A stretch of 13,447 bases of DNA from UHGV virus genome UHGV-0125438. One strand, written 5' to 3'. A model generated the notes under the pieces. The model saw only the letters and a list, made by a program, of their open reading frames with translations. It made no database searches and was not told the DNA's origin. Positions 1 to 11,934 of this stretch are shown piece after piece (the stretch's first letter is position 1; the number at the start of each line of letters is the position of its first letter). The position numbers were made by a program, and so were the translations under genes. The DNA comes from a virus.

Positions 1-51
1 TATGGTGCTCTTGGTCTTAATTTCCACAGATTTCACATGGAGAGAAAATAA
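1..51 (+). CDS. 3' end of an upstream gene (partial, last 16 codons), product unknown
   Basis: Frame 1 is open from the window edge to a TAA at 49-51 that overlaps the next gene's ATG (TAATG, 49-53), a typical translational-coupling junction in phage late operons. Too short to assign a function. Confidence 0.3.
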   Translation, partial: YGALGLNFHRFHMERK

Positions 52-590
52 TGTGTAACCCAGCCATCGCTTTGGTTGCCGTCACAGTGGCATCCACAGC
101 CGCGTCAATGTACAGCCAGAGCAAGCAGGCAAAATACCAGTCAGCCATAGCTGATCGGAATGCTGAAATTGCTGAAGCTCAGGCACAGGATTCAATCAAT
201 CGTGGGAATATTGAAGCGGATCAGCGTCGTCGTGAAATGCGTCAACGCTCAGGCACTGCGGCGGCCACTATGGGTGCTACCGGTGCGGAATTAAGTAGCG
301 GAACAGCTCTTGACGTTTTTGCGGATAATGCTCAGTTCGGCACTCTTGATGCGTTAACGACAGTGAATAATGCTCAGCGTGAGGCATATGGGTATCAGGT
401 TCAGGGAATGAATGCTCAGGCACAGGGGGCTGCTGCTCAGTCGGCTGCTAAATCATCGATGACCAGCACTTTGTTAACGGCACCACTAAAAGCATACGGT
501 GCATACCAGATGGGCGGCGGAACGTGGAGCCCGTTCTCTCAGAAAGCTGCGCCGATTTCTGCTGCTGTTGGTACTCCAACCGGTCGATAA
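51..590 (+). CDS. small virion-associated protein (179 aa), Ala/Gln-rich with an N-terminal hydrophobic segment; possible internal/ejection-associated protein
   Basis: ATG at 51 preceded by GGAGAG (40-45); uninterrupted 179-codon ORF. It is followed 12 nt later by the first of three large co-oriented genes. N-terminal segment AIALVAVTVASTAASMY is hydrophobic. Function inferred from position only. Confidence 0.7.
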   Translation: MCNPAIALVAVTVASTAASMYSQSKQAKYQSAIADRNAEIAEAQAQDSINRGNIEADQRRREMRQRSGTAAATMGATGAELSSGTALDVFADNAQFGTLDALTTVNNAQREAYGYQVQGMNAQAQGAAAQSAAKSSMTSTLLTAPLKAYGAYQMGGGTWSPFSQKAAPISAAVGTPTGR

Positions 591-602
591 GGGGATAATA
601 AG

Positions 603-3116
603 ATGCCAGTTGTACCAACAACATCGGGCCGTCAGGTTCAAAGCAGAGGGATTTCGACGCAGGGATTCTCATCGTTTCAGACACCAAATGTCGGTGATGT
701 ACTTGGCGATGTTGCAGAGCAATATGCAGGTATTATTGCGCAGGCAAAACAGCGTGCGAATGTTGCTATGGCTCAGGATGCTTCTCTTAGCTTAAGCCAG
801 ATAAGCAGCGATCTGCTGAATAACCCTGAAACAGGTTTGCTTAACCTGAAAGGGAAAAATGCTATTGGAAAAGGTCAGGAGTATACGCAGCAGTTTGATG
901 CCCAGGTCGAGCAACTGGCTATGTCGCTGCCGGATGAACAGGCTCGTAATGCTTTCATGCAGCAGGCACAGCAGCAGCGCATTCAGTTCACTACGCAGGC
1001 CGGGCGGCACGAGATAGGGCAAATTAATGCCTACGAAGAAGGTCAGTTTCAGGCGACGCTGCTGAATAATGGTAAAAATGCCGCAGCATTGTATGGCGAC
1101 AATGCCGCATATGTATTGGCTAATAAGCAAACTTTCCAGCAAATTGAGGATTACGGCATTGCGCATGGCTGGAGCGACGAGCAAATCCAGGCCAAGAAAA
1201 TCGAGTTTAAAGAGAAGGTTGCTGATGCCGCATTGTCCCAGTGGTCGGCAAACAATGCGACCGCATTCATCCAAAGTAATGGCGAGTTAAGTGATACTGC
1301 TGCTGGAGCTCGCCGTGCTGTAGCAGATAGTGACTCTTCCGAGCGTGCCCGTGGCATACGCAACAATAACCCAGGAAATCTCGAATACAGCAAAACTAAT
1401 CCGTGGGTAGGCCAGACCGGTGATGATGGTCGATTTGCTAAATTCGAAACACCTGAACACGGGATTCGTGCATTAGGGCGGAACCTGATGTCGTATCAGC
1501 GGCAGGGTATTGATACAGTCAGCGAGATAATTAATCGCTGGGCACCGCCTACTGATAAAAATGACACTATGTCGTATATCAAAGCAGTGTGCGAACAACT
1601 TGGCGTTTCTGCTGATGAGCCTCTCGATGCATCAAATCCTGATACCCTGAAGGCGCTTTGTGCAGCCATTATCCATCATGAGAACGGTAGCCAGCCATAC
1701 AGTGATCAGCAGTTAACTGCTGGTGTCAGTGCAGCACTTGGTTTATCAACAATTCCAACCAACACCAAACGCTATACCGGTAATGCAGCATTCGATGCGG
1801 CCTCTCCTGAGGCGCAGGCAAGTTTTATGCGACAGGCGGATCAACTGCGTCGGCAGCAGCAGGCTGAATATAAAACGATGATTGACAGCCAGGTTCGCGA
1901 TGCGACGGCTGCGTATATGCGTGGCGTTGAATTTCCTAATCCACCTGGTGAGGCTGATTTTATTGCAGCTTATGGCGTCAGAGAAGGAAACCTGCGATAT
2001 ACCGAGTTCAGAAATACGCAGATCGCCGGACAGTATATAGGCTCTTTCCGCAACATGCCGACAAGCAGCATTACAGCATATGTTGAGCAATTACGCCCGG
2101 ATACTGGTGAGACAGGGGAGGGGTATGCGGCACGCGCAGCTCTTTATGACAACGTTGTTTCGGCTGCAAATCAGGTGATAAAGCAGCGGCAGTCGGATCC
2201 TGTGCAGTTCTCTCTTGCCTCCGGACAGGCAAAGCCTATCGACATGAGCAATAAGGATAACTTTGGACAGAGCGTTGCCTTGCGTGCCGCTCAGGTCAGT
2301 GACCTTGCCAAGTCATATGGCACTCCACTGACGTTCTTTTCCAAAGACGAGGCCAATCAGATCGGTGTTTTCTTTCGTGATGCGCCCGTTTCCCAACAGG
2401 CAGCATATCTCGATACCATCAGGCAAAGCACTGGCGGTGGGCAAGTGTATATGTCAGCACTACAGCAGATCAGTGCCAACGCTCCATCTGCTGCCGTTGC
2501 CGGGATACTGATGGATAAGCCTGGTGGTATTTTGGCAGAAAAAAACTGGTTTAATCCGGATGTTTCCGTGTCTCCTGAAACCGCTGCGCAGACAATTCTT
2601 GCTGGCGCGGCGGCTCGTAAAGGTACTGATGATGCGAAAGGTATTCCGATGCCTAAAGATGCTGATCTTCGCCTTGAGTTTTCTGACATGGTGAAGGATG
2701 CATTTGCTGGTGACGCTCAGGGGGCATCAATGGCATACGAGATCGCAAAGGATTATTACGCTGGTGTGATGGCGAAAAAAGGCGTGGTATCAGGCGAAAT
2801 TGACAATGATGTCTGGAAACAGGCTGTTAACGTAGCTACAGGTGGCGTGCATGACTATAACGGAATGGGGAATGTCCTTTTGCCGTGGGGAATGTCTGCA
2901 GAGCAATTCGATAAGCAGGTTAATCAGGCTTGGAATGAACAAGTTGTCGGCTCCGGGATAAAAACACCGCCTGGTCAGTATGGTTTGCAAAGTTACGGCG
3001 ATAGTCAGTACCTGGTGAAACTTGGTACTGGTTATCTGCTGAAAGATGATGGTTCTCCCGTTGTTCTTAATCTGACACAGAAGCGTCAGAGATTCTCCGG
3101 AGATATTCCGCAATGA
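603..3116 (+). CDS. large internal virion / ejection (core) protein, 837 aa
   Basis: 837-codon ORF with ATG at 603 after GGGGATAATAAG; stop overlaps the next start (ATGA at 3113-3116). First of three consecutive 600-840 aa proteins immediately upstream of the tailspike, matching the ejection-protein block of epsilon15-like podophages as I recall it. Contains a motif block (GIRNNNPGNLEY ... HGIRALGRNL ... INRWAPP) that looks like a discrete domain. Confidence 0.8.
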   Translation: MPVVPTTSGRQVQSRGISTQGFSSFQTPNVGDVLGDVAEQYAGIIAQAKQRANVAMAQDASLSLSQISSDLLNNPETGLLNLKGKNAIGKGQEYTQQFDAQVEQLAMSLPDEQARNAFMQQAQQQRIQFTTQAGRHEIGQINAYEEGQFQATLLNNGKNAAALYGDNAAYVLANKQTFQQIEDYGIAHGWSDEQIQAKKIEFKEKVADAALSQWSANNATAFIQSNGELSDTAAGARRAVADSDSSERARGIRNNNPGNLEYSKTNPWVGQTGDDGRFAKFETPEHGIRALGRNLMSYQRQGIDTVSEIINRWAPPTDKNDTMSYIKAVCEQLGVSADEPLDASNPDTLKALCAAIIHHENGSQPYSDQQLTAGVSAALGLSTIPTNTKRYTGNAAFDAASPEAQASFMRQADQLRRQQQAEYKTMIDSQVRDATAAYMRGVEFPNPPGEADFIAAYGVREGNLRYTEFRNTQIAGQYIGSFRNMPTSSITAYVEQLRPDTGETGEGYAARAALYDNVVSAANQVIKQRQSDPVQFSLASGQAKPIDMSNKDNFGQSVALRAAQVSDLAKSYGTPLTFFSKDEANQIGVFFRDAPVSQQAAYLDTIRQSTGGGQVYMSALQQISANAPSAAVAGILMDKPGGILAEKNWFNPDVSVSPETAAQTILAGAAARKGTDDAKGIPMPKDADLRLEFSDMVKDAFAGDAQGASMAYEIAKDYYAGVMAKKGVVSGEIDNDVWKQAVNVATGGVHDYNGMGNVLLPWGMSAEQFDKQVNQAWNEQVVGSGIKTPPGQYGLQSYGDSQYLVKLGTGYLLKDDGSPVVLNLTQKRQRFSGDIPQ

Positions 3117-4915
3117 GTTACTTTGGCCTTAATCCAGTAAACCAGAATCAGCAGCTTGACGAAGCAGCATCAAATCCAGCTGGCTTTAACAGCGATGTTG
3201 GTTTTTTCGACAATGCTGTAGGAGCGGCATTGTCTGGTTTGTACTCCGGGCTGGTGGCAAAGCCAGATCAGTTGCTATGGGCAGGGATGGATAAAATCGT
3301 ATCCCCGATCGCTCAGTTTGTTAACGAAAACACCTCGCTCAATGATACTTCAGTTTCATACATTGCCGAGCAGAGAAAACTAGCAGAGCAGCAGGTTAAG
3401 CGGCTGACGCCTGATGCCGCGACAACCGGAACCGCCGGGCAGGTTCTTTATGGGTTGTTCGATATGGGAGGGCAGGCTGTTGTCGGTACAACGCTCGGTG
3501 GTCCTGTCGGAGGTGCAGCGGCGGTAACTTCGCTACAGGGTTTTTCTGAGTTTGAACGGCTGACAGCACAGGGTGTTGATTTCAGGACGGCGCAGGAAGC
3601 GGGATTAGTGCAGGGCATTACTGCTGGTGCCGGAACACTGATCCCTATGAGCCTCGGGTTACGTGCTGGTGGTGCGCTGGCGGAAGGTGTGGCGGCTCAG
3701 CTTGCGCGGACGGGTGAGAGTTCAGTGCGACGCGCCGCAGCAACAGCAGTACGTGCAATGCCAGATATTGCCTATGCCGCAGGTACAAATATTGCGTTCG
3801 GTATGGCACAGCGTGGGCTTACTGCAAAAACGCTTCGTGATGGTGGCTATAGCGAAATGGCTAACCAGTATGATGTGTTGGATCGACAGGCAATTGCTAT
3901 TGATGCTGTTCTCGGGGTGGCGTTTGGTGGTGTCGGCAGATTTATTAACTCTCGCGGCGAGTCTACAAACGCACCAAATTTTTCACCAGTTGATATCGAT
4001 GCTGCACTGGCTGCGAATGCCGCTCATCATGCTGAAATTGATATTGCGCCCGGCGTGCCGATCAACGTGCTTTCGCGCAATTCTCACATTCAGGCTCTGC
4101 GAAAAGCTATGTCTGATGTTAGCCAGGGGAGACCTGTAGACGTTGCCAGCATTGTTGAGTCTGCATCTTTCAGTGAAATTCCTGGGCGCAAGAGTCTGCT
4201 GTCTCAGGCAGTTAATGAGGCTCTGTCATCTGTAGATGATGGAGTAACGGCGCGCGCTATAGAAAATCGGTTGCTTGAAGAACAGGCCGCGCAGCTTTTG
4301 CCGCGTGGAGATAGACAGGTTTACCAGTCTGAAATCGCTAATAGCCAACGAATTATCGACAATCTCACTGAACAGCGCGCACAAATTCTTGCAGAAGAGC
4401 CAACTGGTAGCGGTAAAGCTTTGTCTCGTGCTCGATCAGATAAACAGGCAAGAATTCGCGATATTGACCAACGAATCCGGCAGGCACAAGAACGCCTGGA
4501 ATTTTCCCGTAACGCGTTGGCACCGCATGAGCCTGGCGGTCAGTTTTTTGAAGCTCGAGCAGAACTGGCACGGAGACAGCAGGCTGAAAGTGAACTTAAT
4601 GCTCAGGCTGTTTCATTCTATAAAACAGCAGAGGTCAGGACGCCAGACGAAGTAGCTCCTTTTGAGCCCGGTAAGATATTGCAACAGACAGAACAAAAAA
4701 TGATGGCAGATCCGGCAGGGGATATTGATCTGCGTATAGCTGAAGACTCGCTGCTTGAATCTCCGGACATGATAATCACCGTGCTGGATGATGATGGTAA
4801 TCCACAATCGCGCAGTGCGCGTGAAGTACTGGATGAAGTGAACAGGGAAAGTGAGCAGGCAATACAGGATTCCAGCCTGTTTGATGTTGCTGTGGCGTGT
4901 TTCTTGAGAGGTTAA
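3113..4915 (+). CDS. internal virion / ejection protein, 600 aa, with Gly/Ala-rich hydrophobic segments
   Basis: ATGA start/stop overlap with the upstream gene; 600-codon ORF. Residues about 100-290 carry repeated small-residue hydrophobic stretches (LGGPVGGAAAVTSL, GITAGAGTLIPMSLGLRAGGALAEGVAAQLA, AIDAVLGVAFGGVG) followed by a charged, helix-prone C-terminal half. Confidence 0.8.
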   Translation: MSYFGLNPVNQNQQLDEAASNPAGFNSDVGFFDNAVGAALSGLYSGLVAKPDQLLWAGMDKIVSPIAQFVNENTSLNDTSVSYIAEQRKLAEQQVKRLTPDAATTGTAGQVLYGLFDMGGQAVVGTTLGGPVGGAAAVTSLQGFSEFERLTAQGVDFRTAQEAGLVQGITAGAGTLIPMSLGLRAGGALAEGVAAQLARTGESSVRRAAATAVRAMPDIAYAAGTNIAFGMAQRGLTAKTLRDGGYSEMANQYDVLDRQAIAIDAVLGVAFGGVGRFINSRGESTNAPNFSPVDIDAALAANAAHHAEIDIAPGVPINVLSRNSHIQALRKAMSDVSQGRPVDVASIVESASFSEIPGRKSLLSQAVNEALSSVDDGVTARAIENRLLEEQAAQLLPRGDRQVYQSEIANSQRIIDNLTEQRAQILAEEPTGSGKALSRARSDKQARIRDIDQRIRQAQERLEFSRNALAPHEPGGQFFEARAELARRQQAESELNAQAVSFYKTAEVRTPDEVAPFEPGKILQQTEQKMMADPAGDIDLRIAEDSLLESPDMIITVLDDDGNPQSRSAREVLDEVNRESEQAIQDSSLFDVAVACFLRG

Positions 4916-4920
4916 ATTAA

Positions 4921-7395
4921 ATGAGACAGGAATGTATACAAGCGGTCCAGCAGGCGGCGCAGCGCACGTTAACGGCGCGAGAAATACAGAACATTGAAGA
5001 CCGCATTTATCGAAATATGCGCTCCATTGCTCGTGATGATCCGATGTCGTGGCGACAACTTTCCGAATCAGAACGGTTGTATCGTGCAGCACAATTGGCA
5101 TCTGAAGAATTACAGCGAGAAGCGGCATTAAAGAAACGTCGTGTGGCTCTCACTATAGCCGCACGTCAGAGATTGGATAAATTTATCAATAGCTATCAAG
5201 GGGCTGATGGGAAACTTGGCGCTCTTAACCGTACTATTGCTTTTAATGCAGACGGTAAATCGAATTTCCTCTCTGTTGAATCCAGAACAAAAGCCACTCG
5301 TGATTATGCATTGAGTCAATTGCAGGAGGCATTTGAAGCAGTTGATCCTCGCTTTTTTGGCCTGTTTGAAGATGAAGCTGGCGTGCGTGACCTGGTATAT
5401 GAAATGCGAGGGCAAAATACTGGCAATGCTAAAGCAAGAAAAGGTGCTAAGGCGTGGAGAGAAGTGACAGAGCTACTGCGCCGCCGGTTTAATGATGCTG
5501 GTGGGGACATTGGCTATCTCGAAAACTGGGGGATCCCTCAACATCATTCTATGGAAAAGGTTGGGGCGGTATCAAAGGATAAGTGGGTTAGCGATGTTAT
5601 AGGTAAGCTGGATCGCAAATATTATACCCGAGTCGATGGACAACTGATGAACGATGCCGAGTTGTCTGCATTTCTTGGAGAGGCTTATAACACGATCGCT
5701 ACTGGTGGGCTGAATAAGCTTACTGATACCGGAATGCGAATTTCCGGCGCACGTGCTAACCGTGGTAATGCATCACGACAGATACATTTCAAAGATGCAG
5801 ATTCCTATCTGCAATATCAGCAACTTTATGGCGATCGCTCTCTATGGGAAATCATGGTCGGTCACCTGGAAGGTATCAGTAAAGATATTGCACTGGTGGA
5901 AACATATGGCCCAAACCCCGATCATGTTTTCCGCTCTCTTCTTGATCAGGTGAAGGCAGAAACTGCAACAGCTAACCCGAGTAAAATCGGTAAAGTCGAG
6001 CGGCTGGCGAACAACACAGAGAATCTGTACAACTTTATTTCCGGAAAGACACAGCCTGTAGCGAATCCGCACATCGCGCGATGGTCTGACAATATCCGCA
6101 ACTGGCTGGTTGCCAGCAGACTCGGATCCGCGTTGCTGTCATCGTTCTCTGATCTTGGAACCATGTATCTGTCTGCGAAGGTTACCAACCTTCCAATGAA
6201 CCAGTTATTCCGCAACCAGCTTGAAGCTATGGACCCAACGAACCGTACAGAACTTGCGCGGGCGCGCCGCGCTGGTCTGGCGATGGAATCTTTACTTGGC
6301 AGCGTTAACCGCTGGGCGATGGATAATATGGGGCCGTCAGTGTCTCGTTGGGCGGCAACGGCGGTAATGCGTGCCAGTGGGCTTACAGCATGGTCAGATG
6401 CGCACAAGCGCGCCTATGGCGTAACCATGATGGGAAGCCTGGGAGAAGTAGTGTCACGGACAGCAGACCTTCGTAGCCTCGATGACTCTGATTTTCGTAT
6501 CCTGAAAAGCAAAGGGATTACTGACACAGACTGGAGAGTATGGAAGCTGGCGCAACAGGAGGACTGGGGGAACGGTAATAATACGATGCTGACACCGGAA
6601 AGCATTATGCGTATCCCTGATTCAGCAGTTAAACATCTTGGTGATCCTGAACGTGTGAAATTTGAGGCAATGCGTAAACTGCTCGGTGCCGTAACTGAAG
6701 AAGTTGATATGGCTGTTATTACACCGGGAGCACGTGAGCAACTGATAACCGGTTCTGGTATTCAGCGTGGAACATGGAAAGGTGAATTAACGAGAAGTGT
6801 TTTCCTGTTTAAATCGTTCCCTATCTCGGTGGTTATGCGTCACTGGTCACGCGCTATGGGTATGCCGTCTGCTGGTGGGCGTGCGGCATATATTGCGACG
6901 TTTATTGCCAGTACGACCATTCTTGGAGCTTTGTCGCAGCAACTTAACGACCTTGCGTCTGGTCGTAATCCTCGCGAGATGACAGGAGAAGATGCCGCAA
7001 AATTCTGGCTTGGTGCTCTATTGAAAGGTGGTGGTCTTGGCCTTTACGGTGACTTTTTATTGTCAGATCACACTAGGTACGGAAGCGGCGCGCTGGCGTC
7101 GATGCTTGGCCCGGTGGCTGGTCTGGTTGATGACGTAGTGAAGATTGCTCAGGGCATACCGTTAAATGCTGTGGAAGGGAAGAGTGAGCAGACTGGTGGT
7201 GATCTGGTGAAGCTGGGGAAAGGTTTGATGCCAGGTGCGAATCTCTGGTACTTGAAGGCGGCTCTCGATCACATGATCTTTAACCAGATGCAGGAGTATT
7301 TTTCACCAGGCTATTTGCGTAAAATGGAGCAACGTTCGAAGAAAGAGTTTAACCAGACATACTGGTGGCGACCTCAGGATGTCACTCCGCAATAA
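4921..7395 (+). CDS. large internal virion / ejection protein, 824 aa
   Basis: ATG at 4921, 5 nt after the previous stop; 824-codon ORF ending TAA at 7393-7395. Third large protein of the block; the only antisense ORFs across it are low-complexity shadow ORFs. Confidence 0.8.
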   Translation: MRQECIQAVQQAAQRTLTAREIQNIEDRIYRNMRSIARDDPMSWRQLSESERLYRAAQLASEELQREAALKKRRVALTIAARQRLDKFINSYQGADGKLGALNRTIAFNADGKSNFLSVESRTKATRDYALSQLQEAFEAVDPRFFGLFEDEAGVRDLVYEMRGQNTGNAKARKGAKAWREVTELLRRRFNDAGGDIGYLENWGIPQHHSMEKVGAVSKDKWVSDVIGKLDRKYYTRVDGQLMNDAELSAFLGEAYNTIATGGLNKLTDTGMRISGARANRGNASRQIHFKDADSYLQYQQLYGDRSLWEIMVGHLEGISKDIALVETYGPNPDHVFRSLLDQVKAETATANPSKIGKVERLANNTENLYNFISGKTQPVANPHIARWSDNIRNWLVASRLGSALLSSFSDLGTMYLSAKVTNLPMNQLFRNQLEAMDPTNRTELARARRAGLAMESLLGSVNRWAMDNMGPSVSRWAATAVMRASGLTAWSDAHKRAYGVTMMGSLGEVVSRTADLRSLDDSDFRILKSKGITDTDWRVWKLAQQEDWGNGNNTMLTPESIMRIPDSAVKHLGDPERVKFEAMRKLLGAVTEEVDMAVITPGAREQLITGSGIQRGTWKGELTRSVFLFKSFPISVVMRHWSRAMGMPSAGGRAAYIATFIASTTILGALSQQLNDLASGRNPREMTGEDAAKFWLGALLKGGGLGLYGDFLLSDHTRYGSGALASMLGPVAGLVDDVVKIAQGIPLNAVEGKSEQTGGDLVKLGKGLMPGANLWYLKAALDHMIFNQMQEYFSPGYLRKMEQRSKKEFNQTYWWRPQDVTPQ

Positions 7396-7404
7396 GGATG
7401 AGAA

Positions 7405-7545
7405 ATGATTGCTTTTATTCTTGTTGTATTTGTGCTTGTTGCCCTTGGCGTTATGAATCGTAAATGTATCATTGAAGACGGTGAATTTGCTGTAGCAGTT
7501 GTTTTGATATTATCTGGTGTAGCAGGGCACATAGGTTTGTCATAG
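7405..7545 (+). CDS. small hydrophobic protein (46 aa), hypothetical
   Basis: Absent from the supplied ORF track (below its length cutoff). ATG at 7405 lies 7 nt after AAGGA (7393-7397) and 9 nt after the upstream stop. My translation is MIAFILVVFVLVALGVMNRKCIIEDGEFAVAVVLILSGVAGHIGLS, two hydrophobic stretches around a charged loop; stop TAG at 7543-7545. Confidence 0.4.
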   Translation: MIAFILVVFVLVALGVMNRKCIIEDGEFAVAVVLILSGVAGHIGLS

Positions 7546-7565
7546 CTTGAGTGTGACATGTCACA

Positions 7566-7581
7566 GGCCGCTTTCGCGGCC
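7566..7581. terminator. GC-rich hairpin (GGCCGC-TTTC-GCGGCC) between convergent genes; possible bidirectional terminator or RNA-stabilising stem
   Basis: Perfect 6-bp GC stem with a 4-nt loop, sitting between the end of the + strand small ORF (7545) and the stop of the - strand gene (7589-7591). No clean poly-U tract on either strand, so terminator function is uncertain. Confidence 0.3.
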
Positions 7582-7588
7582 CTTAAAT

Positions 7589-7846
7589 TTACCGGATTTG
7601 TTTTCGTAATTGTTCGGCACAATAGTCGAGATGTGTTTGCAGATCCTGCATAGACATCTGTGAGCTGGTGACGTAGTTAATCAGTGCAGTCAGTTCGGCA
7701 AGTGGGCCATCGACATTAAATCCATCCTTATCGAGATCCCGGAGTAATTTCATCAAGTGCGATCCCTCCACCAGTGACCTGACGCCTCCCGGCGTGTGAA
7801 TCCTTTCGGTAAATCCGTCTTCCAGTGGATAGTGATACTGCTGCAT
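7589..7846 (-). CDS. small antisense protein (85 aa), unknown function, apparently LexA/SOS-regulated; candidate antirepressor or SOS-induced moron
   Basis: Only convincing - strand gene in the window. I place the start at the internal ATG (7846-7844) because GGAGAAGATAAG sits just upstream on the - strand; the track's longer 126-aa form would run through the LexA box and an AT-rich low-complexity stretch. Product begins MQQYHYPLEDGFTERIHTPGG. A LexA box lies about 20 bp upstream. Confidence 0.55.
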   Translation of the reverse strand: MQQYHYPLEDGFTERIHTPGGVRSLVEGSHLMKLLRDLDKDGFNVDGPLAELTALINYVTSSQMSMQDLQTHLDYCAEQLRKQIR

Positions 7847-7865
7847 CTTATCTTCTCCATGCAAT

Positions 7866-7885
7866 AACTGTATGTTTATACAGTA
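7866..7885 (-). promoter_or_regulatory. LexA binding site (SOS box): AACTGTATGTTTATACAGTA
   Basis: CTGT-N8-ACAG with flanks matching 17 of 20 positions of the E. coli LexA consensus TACTGTATATATATACAGTA, both CTGT/ACAG half-sites intact. It sits in the AT-rich intergenic region just upstream of the - strand gene starting at 7846. Confidence 0.6.
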
Positions 7886-8041
7886 ACAAATAATTTGTTT
7901 GCTATCCAGCACGTTTTGCAAATTACCCGAAAGGTAATATCTATTGGTATTTATAGTCTTTTTATCCATATATGGTTTTTCAGGTAATAGAATAACCAGA
8001 TATGCGGCGCAACGGGTGCTGCGACTATCTGGAGATTTAAC

Positions 8042-10393: not shown

Positions 10394-10432
10394 TGTGATA
10401 TCCTCATTAACAAGGACGTTTTTGAGGTGTTT

Positions 10433-11809
10433 ATGTCAGTTTCCAGAAGAAATTTTATTAAATTAGCTGCGGCCATCGGCGCGCTGTCAGGATCTGGTCT
10501 TCTTTTTGCAGATTTTGTTGCTGGAAGGAAAAACCGCGTATTCATTATTTACGGACAATCCAACTCAACAGGAGCCGTTGATTATTCACAGACCTGGAGA
10601 ACACCAAGCCCATGGGATTCTTATCTTGAATCATATGAGGGTGAGAGAGACGGTAGTAAATTCATCACAACTGATTTGGCAAGTGCATTTACTTTGTCCT
10701 CAGGCGGCGCAAGCTTAACCAATTTAGACAGAATGGCATTTGGTATTGATGCAGGAGAAGGGCCTGTATACGGAATAATTTCACATATCTCAAAAGCGTT
10801 TCCAAATGACAATCTTATTATCTTCGGGCACGGAAGGGGATCCCAGTATATAGAGCAACTTATTAAGCCTAGCAAAGATTTAATTCTTAATGGTGACAAC
10901 TATAACAAACCTCTAACTAAAGAGTCTTCTGACTACAATGTAGTATCAGGAAATAAATCACTGCTTTATTATCGCGAGCCAAAATTCCGCTACCCTTATC
11001 TGAACGGTATGTGGATGCTCGAAAAAATAAAAGATATTATCAAAAGTGATATTCAAGTTGATGGCATCTTCTGGATTCAGGGGGAAAATGATGCCATCGC
11101 CCCTAAAGGATATTCTGAAAAACTTCTATCATTCAGAAATGATTACGTTAAAGATATTGTAAAAATCACAGGGCAGGGCAAAGAGCCAGAGTTTATTTTT
11201 GAGCAAAGCAATTACTGTTGGCATGGTTTTAAAACCGAAGGTAGAAGGATAAACTCACACTTTGGTCTTAACGTCGAGCAACGCATGGCCCATGATGAAG
11301 CAAAACATTCCGGCATTAAGATGTACATCTCTGGCCCAAGATATCACCTGACGAACGAAATTCATATGTACCCACATGCCCAGCGTGCACATGGCGAAAA
11401 AATGGCACAGGCGTATTTAACTAGTAAGTTGTCAGGTTCATCATGGTCACCTCTATGTTATAAATCACATTCTATCGATGGTAACAGCATTATTATAAAA
11501 TTTAATATTCCTGTGAAGCCATTGCAATTTAGAAAAACCCTCAACGGAATGTATTCATTTATAAAAGATGGTTGTCCTATGGGTTTTCATTTCACAGGAA
11601 AAAAACTATCTGCTAGCGACGTTAAGATCATTTCAGATGATACTGTGAGCATCAATACTTCCGGCCTTAAAGGTACGGTGAGTTATCTTAAAGAGTCACG
11701 GATAGGAGAGCTTTGCGATAGTGATGAATTCCCAAATCATTTTAAAGATCGCTATCATGCAGACAATTGCATGCTGAATTATTGCCTTCCGTTTGAGATA
11801 GAAATTTAG
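10433..11809 (+). CDS. Tat-exported SGNH/SASA-family carbohydrate esterase (sialate O-acetylesterase-like), about 458 aa; candidate O-acetyl esterase acting on surface polysaccharide
   Basis: N-terminus MSVSRRNFIKLAAAIGALSGSGLLFA has a twin-arginine motif (SRRNFIK) followed by a hydrophobic h-region. The mature part begins IIYGQSNSTG (SGNH block I as in the SASA family GQSNMxG) and later has WIQGENDA (block III, GxND). Start chosen at ATG 10433 (GAGG 5 nt upstream) rather than the track's GTG at 10427. The gene is visibly AT-rich and sits 39 bp after the tailspike stop. Confidence 0.75.
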   Translation: MSVSRRNFIKLAAAIGALSGSGLLFADFVAGRKNRVFIIYGQSNSTGAVDYSQTWRTPSPWDSYLESYEGERDGSKFITTDLASAFTLSSGGASLTNLDRMAFGIDAGEGPVYGIISHISKAFPNDNLIIFGHGRGSQYIEQLIKPSKDLILNGDNYNKPLTKESSDYNVVSGNKSLLYYREPKFRYPYLNGMWMLEKIKDIIKSDIQVDGIFWIQGENDAIAPKGYSEKLLSFRNDYVKDIVKITGQGKEPEFIFEQSNYCWHGFKTEGRRINSHFGLNVEQRMAHDEAKHSGIKMYISGPRYHLTNEIHMYPHAQRAHGEKMAQAYLTSKLSGSSWSPLCYKSHSIDGNSIIIKFNIPVKPLQFRKTLNGMYSFIKDGCPMGFHFTGKKLSASDVKIISDDTVSINTSGLKGTVSYLKESRIGELCDSDEFPNHFKDRYHADNCMLNYCLPFEIEI

Positions 11810-11934
11810 GCAAATCACCTCTAGGGTAATTTCGTTAAGAGTTATCCGATCAAATTTAATCCACATATGGTTTATTGTGTATGATGAACTCACCAACTAA
11901 GGGGGTTCTTTATGCACATTAAACGGTGGTCACT

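Follow-up and report, generated by a model that had tools for sequence, protein, structure and literature searches.

A small antisense gene in the late region of an epsilon15-like Escherichia coli phage very probably encodes the antirepressor Ant known from Salmonella phage SPC32H

Introduction

What is encoded by the one conserved gene that runs against all of its neighbours in the late region of a temperate phage, and how might its product act? The question is raised by a stretch of viral DNA of 13,447 nucleotides (UHGV virus genome UHGV-0125438), the whole of which is referred to here as the window, and in which an open reading frame for 85 amino acids lies antisense at positions 7589-7846. 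The original prediction, which was made from the sequence alone, described the product as helix-prone in its C-terminal half, as matching no known family and as being of unknown function; an antirepressor was its first-listed guess, followed by an SOS-induced inhibitor of a host function and a regulator of late genes. It also held that the gene is set apart from everything around it by its orientation and regulation.

The late region and its antisense gene

In the window we recognise the late/lysis region of a temperate E. coli podophage of the epsilon15-like type (Uetakevirus). Its sequence is 96% identical across the region to the E. coli Uetakevirus vB_EcoP_PAS61 (PAS61), the closest complete relative, 94-98% identical to phiV10, TL-2011b and ZX5 over the part shared with them, and ~80% identical to the Salmonella phages SPN1S and SPC32H. 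The genes on the plus strand encode a T7 gp14-like internal virion protein, three large internal or ejection proteins and a 46-aa membrane protein, together with a beta-helix tailspike, a SASA-type esterase with a Tat signal, two proteins of the holin family and a family-19 endolysin. The features that define the position of the antisense gene are:

51-590, plus strand: internal virion protein of the T7 gp14 family
603-7395, plus strand: three large proteins of 837, 600 and 824 aa, none of them assigned to a Pfam family, presumed to be epsilon15-type ejection/core proteins
7405-7545, plus strand: 46-aa protein (PHROG 7892, E=2.5e-30), convergent with ant
7589..7846, minus strand: ant, coding sequence of the very probable antirepressor, 85 aa plus TAA stop (PDB homology, synteny, dN/dS and PHROG 450)

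The antisense gene occupies a slot that has the genes for the internal virion proteins and the 46-aa (141-nt) membrane gene on one side and the tailspike gene on the other, and the order and orientation of the genes around it are the same in SPC32H, PAS61 and phiV10. No other conserved gene of the window lies on the minus strand, the late genes all being on the plus strand, and its orientation does distinguish it from all of its neighbours. Scans of the window with Rfam and for tRNA were both empty and the antisense region therefore contains no known RNA element. In related phages, the 46-aa gene is annotated as encoding an integral membrane protein, for which two transmembrane helices are predicted.

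Relationship to Ant of phage SPC32H

A phmmer search of the PDB with the 85-aa protein returned a single match, the 86-aa chain 5D50_E, 'Anti-repressor protein' (E=1.6e-46), in which residues 3-84 are aligned with residues 2-83 of the query. In entry 5D50, Ant of the Salmonella phage SPC32H (chain E) is crystallised with its repressor, Rep (chain A). Comparison by tblastn with the SPC32H gene, which is annotated as 'ant: anti-repressor protein' and has an identical position and orientation, gave 87.8% identity. There is also a match to PHROG 450 (E=1e-47), an entry that carries no function. When Pfam and NCBIfam were searched with the 85-aa protein, no family was found, and there was no Pfam match above threshold to the Bro-N (PF02498) or ANT domain; a sub-threshold Pfam match to DUF724 (17.5 bits, with a cut-off of 38.4) was dismissed as an artefact of coiled helices. 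Members of the family, which have 85-86 aa and 58-100% identity, occur solely in Enterobacteriaceae and in phages of these bacteria.

We consider it very probable, from these comparisons, that the gene is ant of an epsilon15-like (Uetakevirus) temperate E. coli phage or prophage, and that its product is an orthologue of the Ant proteins of SPC32H and SPN1S. These proteins resemble the window protein in identity (~88%), in length (86 aa as compared with 85 aa) and in their antisense slot, and the likeness extends to the LexA box, the Shine-Dalgarno sequence and the promoter-like blocks described below. They differ from it in that their host is Salmonella rather than E. coli and in that the window Ant is without one residue after Met-Gln. 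The Ant family has already been characterised experimentally and the structure of the complex has been solved. The description of the protein as one of unknown function without a family can thus no longer be upheld: the family is merely absent from Pfam and NCBIfam, and the protein could not be placed at first because nearly all of the database members are labelled 'hypothetical protein'. The original prediction was to be refuted by a confident match to a well-characterised family with a different role; the match was found, but not the different role, since what it confirms is the antirepressor.

Conservation and structure of the coding sequence

The reading frame extends on the minus strand from an ATG at 7846-7844 to a TAA at 7591-7589, and the encoded 85-aa sequence, MQQYHYPLEDGFTERIHTPGG...LDYCAEQLRKQIR, is identical to the one quoted earlier, with the same coordinates. 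The length of the frame by itself is within chance because the window contains 81 open reading frames of at least 40 aa. A chance or decaying frame that is not expressed might accordingly be supposed, the more so as the frame is short, is named 'hypothetical protein' in RefSeq E. coli genomes and belongs to no Pfam or NCBIfam family. Comparison with the orthologues of the Salmonella phages SPC32H and VB_ST_E15 and of the Enterobacter phage Tyrion, however, gives dN/dS values of 0.06-0.10 at dS of 1.0-1.9 (synonymous sites being saturated) and dN of ~0.1, and the frame is, by this measure, under strong purifying selection. There are ~130 close homologues across Enterobacteriaceae, in which the length of 85-86 aa has been kept across many genera; the locus is present in 529 of the 5426 complete E. 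coli genomes (~1 in 10), and an orthologue has a solved structure. The probability that we attach to an unexpressed frame is next to nil, this reading being effectively refuted already by the pattern of conservation. That the 85-aa frame is a real gene follows from the purifying selection, a conserved Shine-Dalgarno sequence (see below) and the number of close homologues.

The secondary structure of the protein is predicted to be entirely helical, which bears out the earlier description of its C-terminal half as helix-prone, and a monomer of five helices was modelled with moderate confidence. Fold searches with this monomer model were uninformative, and the most likely reason for this is that the protein is an obligate oligomer.

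Predicted control region

The region upstream of the gene was compared in an alignment of seven phages, the ant genes of which have diverged to dS>1. The following elements were found or are proposed:

7854..7858, minus strand: Shine-Dalgarno sequence GGAGA, separated from the ATG by 7 nt
7868..7883: predicted LexA (SOS) box CTGTATGTTTATACAG, of the form CTGT-N8-ACAG, 21 nt upstream of the ant ATG
7880..7888, minus strand: proposed extended -10 element, TGtTACTGT, with which the LexA box overlaps
7903..7908, minus strand: proposed -35 element, TGGATA, 17 nt from the -10 element

The sequence 'GCATGGAGA' at the Shine-Dalgarno position is invariant in all seven aligned phages and the ATG is conserved too. 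The perfect CTGT-N8-ACAG motif at 7868-7883 is the only one in the window, and of the 20 positions in the 20-mer that surrounds it (7866-7885), 17 agree with TACTGTATATATATACAGTA, the consensus for SOS boxes in E. coli. At least one such motif was present in 31 of 200 shuffled windows; as a chance match in 13 kb is unremarkable, the case for a LexA box rests on its position and its conservation. The CTGT and ACAG arms are invariant in the seven phages, whereas the AT-rich spacer is variable, and in the whole genomes of PAS61 and SPC32H an SOS box with an AT-rich spacer occurs only upstream of ant.

A generic sigma-70 promoter scan of the window called no ant promoter; the one proposed here is derived from conservation amongst the seven phages and its exact hexamers are putative. 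The extended -10 sequence, TG-n-TACTGT, is invariant in the alignment, as is the block 'TGCTGGATAG', which lies inside an otherwise poorly conserved intergenic spacer. The LexA box would, on this assignment, cover both the -10 element and the likely start site of the ant promoter. A second promoter candidate, TTGCAA-17-ACAAAT, was rejected, its -10 element not being conserved in the Salmonella phages. The claim that the gene is distinguished by its regulation has therefore held, in that a predicted LexA box conserved in seven phages lies in the proposed ant promoter; taken together with the identity of ~88% to the crystallised SPC32H protein, the same box favours the antirepressor guess.

The control region also bears on the extent of the gene. 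The mechanical reading frame remains open further upstream, to an ATG at 7969, and it might be proposed that the true product is a protein of 126 aa, of which the 85 aa are the C-terminal part. The frame is open from 7969 in PAS61 as well as in the window, the annotation of PAS61 uses the 126-aa version, and there are database clusters of 126-127 aa that exist as gene calls (P0004, P0013, P0020 and P0034-P0040). In four of seven phages (TL-2011b, phiV10, VB_ST_E15 and Tyrion), however, the extension is interrupted by in-frame stops, and within it lie the LexA box, the promoter-like blocks and an operator-like repeat. The 85-aa version is taken to be the right one because of these stops and regulatory elements, and the 126-aa frame was rejected; a longer product, which we regard as very improbable, is also opposed by the conserved Shine-Dalgarno sequence ahead of the ATG at 7846 and by the length of the crystallised protein, 86 aa.

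Repressor partner and proposed mechanism

The window does not extend to the immunity region, and the evidence on the repressor comes from complete relatives. The gene used for this purpose is:

L008:5864-6448: rep of PAS61, compared with rep of SPC32H

The PAS61 repressor matches 5D50_A, 'Repressor', over its full length (E=4e-42); it has HTH domains and no Peptidase_S24 domain, and the type of partner repressor in close relatives of the window phage is the same as that of SPC32H and SPN1S. This Rep allele is common to all of the E. coli members that have been sequenced, phiV10, ZX5 and TL-2011b included (98.5-100% identical). Homologues of Ant occur in 35 phage records and those of Rep in 37; the records are almost the same ones and the counts by genus are nearly equal, so that Ant co-occurs with repressors that lack S24. 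The two proteins differ in how far they have diverged between E. coli and Salmonella phages, Ant being ~88% identical and Rep only ~42%, a value that applies equally to SPC32H Rep and the presumed partner of the window Ant. It is assumed that the Ant-Rep interface has been conserved despite the divergence of Rep.

LexA control, binding to Rep and disassembly of the Rep tetramer are known from the literature on the Salmonella orthologue. Self-cleavage of LexA is described as leading to production of the antirepressor, which contacts the repressor protein directly and thereby inhibits it (Kim and Ryu 2013, as cited in PMC7380047; PMC9437464). Other sources state that Salmonella Ant is a tetramer that dissociates the Rep tetramer (Kim et al. 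2016, as cited in PMC9638917), that the target of Ant on Rep is the tetramerisation domain (PMC9986798), and that Ant locks Rep in a non-functional arrangement and does not mimic DNA (bioRxiv 10.1101/2025.11.27.690993).

If the E. coli pair is assumed to behave like the Salmonella pair, the following scheme may be drawn up. In a lysogen, host LexA would occupy the SOS box over the -10 and start region of ant and keep the gene silent. DNA damage would activate RecA and LexA would cleave itself, upon which ant would be transcribed from its own leftward promoter to give the 85-aa helical protein. Ant would then bind Rep, a non-self-cleaving protein with two HTH domains that represses as a tetramer, and convert it to dimers with poor DNA binding; the early lytic promoters would be derepressed and the prophage induced. 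We hold the SPC32H mechanism to be by far the most likely one for the window gene, with very little doubt attached, on account of the identity of 88%, the synteny and the SOS box that the two phages have in common and of the type of partner presumed for it from close relatives.

It could alternatively be supposed that the SOS-induced protein mainly targets something else, be it a host function such as division or replication, the late genes, or the repressors of other prophages. The much stronger conservation of Ant than of Rep would agree with a further conserved target or with cross-reactivity, and LexA-controlled antirepressors that act in trans are documented for the Gifsy and Fels-2 prophages (PMC3121763, as summarised in PMC7380047). 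Such a main target is nevertheless improbable: the crystal structure of the orthologue is that of a complex with its own Rep (5D50, chains A and E), Ant and Rep occur almost one-to-one in phage records, and no likeness to host-targeting families was found in Pfam, NCBIfam or PHROGs. The earlier suggestions that the product inhibits a host function or regulates late genes received no support in this analysis. We return to the reading of the gene as an antirepressor of Rep.

Ant is likely to be the SOS trigger for induction of these prophages, a class that includes phages associated with O157 and O103, for example phiV10 and TL-2011b. The main value of the identification is to correct an annotation, the gene being listed as a 'hypothetical protein' by RefSeq and by most phage records and having no Pfam or NCBIfam model; under its correct name it shows how such prophages are induced. 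The system itself is already known and there is nothing new in its biology beyond the work on SPC32H.

Other phage antirepressors

In the Gifsy-1/3 and Fels-2 prophages, as in coliphage 186 with its protein Tum, a non-cleavable repressor is countered by a small antirepressor that is silenced by LexA and induced by DNA damage (PMC7380047; PMC9437464). These are different phage types, and the likeness of their antirepressors to the window Ant is one of circuit logic. PMC7380047 calls these proteins 'homologous to Tum'. No antirepressor of the Tum, Gifsy or Fels-2 kind surfaced amongst the matches to Ant in the phage records or the protein database.

In phage P22, the ant gene is flanked by the genes for the ejection proteins and by that for the tailspike. 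The P22 immI Ant is, like the protein considered here, an antirepressor in a temperate podophage, and according to PMC7380047 it inactivates the prophage repressor by binding to it. P22 Ant is much larger; the same source indicates that it is under Mnt/Arc control rather than that of LexA, and that P22 ant mutants are still SOS-inducible.

Antirepressors of a further type, with 194-234 aa and an N-terminal Bro-N domain, are encoded near ant in relatives of the window phage (Tyrion gp20, phiV10 p23 and ZX5 ORF4). They are the products of separate genes that lie downstream of ant, and there is none in the window. Two of them are of particular relevance to the relationship with Ant:

L010:3418-4122: Tyrion gp20, Bro-N antirepressor with an Ant-like C-terminal domain
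L009:3647-4231: phiV10 p23, Bro-N antirepressor, partly Ant-like

Over its C-terminal 78 residues, Tyrion gp20 has 38% identity to Ant (E=2e-19); the part of Ant that recurs in phiV10 p23 is shorter, and the C-terminus of PHROG 1760 ('anti-repressor') matches Ant residues 27-75. Overexpression of ZX5 ORF4 lowers lysogeny; it should be noted that this experiment on ZX5, a relative with 98.8% identity, concerned the separate Bro-N 'anti-repressor' and not the small Ant homologue. E. coli prophages vary in what lies between the 46-aa gene and ant, and genes of the BRO-N or AntA/AntB kind are found there.

The fact that Ant is more conserved than Rep (88% as opposed to 42%), together with the reuse of its fold in the Bro-N antirepressors, has led us to the idea that one Ant might inactivate Reps of different immunity types and so cross-induce co-resident epsilon15-like prophages.

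A probable operator

A further conserved element lies upstream of the proposed ant promoter:

7922..7938: 17-bp inverted repeat ATTACC-N5-GGTAAT, 13 bp upstream of the proposed ant -35 element, between ant and the tailspike gene

The repeat is present at this position in all of the relatives that were compared. Exact copies of TTACC-N5-GGTAA number eight in PAS61 and ten in SPC32H, where 0.02-0.07 would be expected. Nearly all of these are intergenic; they are clustered between rep and cro and also shortly beyond rep, and single copies precede the terminase, portal and post-replication gene blocks. In the window, a conserved copy with one mismatch is found at 11814-11830, ahead of the lysis genes. 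As RNA, the repeat at 7922-7938 does not form a stable hairpin (z=-0.08). The distribution is the pattern expected of an operator, and the repeat is probably the operator of the phage repressor. The epsilon15 genome paper reportedly describes an operator of this kind; a literal search of the literature for the operator consensus gave no match.

As this probable operator is only 13 bp from the LexA-controlled ant promoter, it is proposed that Rep may also act on the divergent ant and tailspike promoters, in addition to the action of LexA on ant. If this double lock is real, it would provide positive feedback once Ant begins to remove Rep. The joint reading, in which the ant control region is locked twice and Ant inactivates Reps of different immunity types, is put forward as a tentative one that we think rather unlikely to be correct as a whole.

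Minor features of the window

Two further elements of the window deserve mention:

7566..7581: GC-rich hairpin GGCCGC-TTTC-GCGGCC, separating ant, the stop of which it follows by 7 nt, from the convergent 46-aa gene
10427-11809, plus strand: 460-aa protein with a twin-arginine signal (SRRNFIK) and a SASA/SGNH carbohydrate-esterase domain

The hairpin was called by a terminator scan on the plus strand and folds on both strands (-16.5 and -17.3 kcal/mol), and a terminator is annotated at the equivalent place in the phiV10 record; it is a probable terminator. A U-run is missing from the ant strand, so that the action of the hairpin on ant transcripts is putative. A perfect 14-bp palindrome, TGTGACATGTCACA, adjoins the GC-rich hairpin at 7552-7565 and folds as a second small hairpin.

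The 460-aa protein may be a conversion enzyme that modifies the O-antigen in the periplasm by deacetylation. In relatives, its slot is occupied by an O-antigen acetylase. The esterase together with the receptor-binding part of the tailspike is present in 2 of the 5426 complete E. coli genomes.
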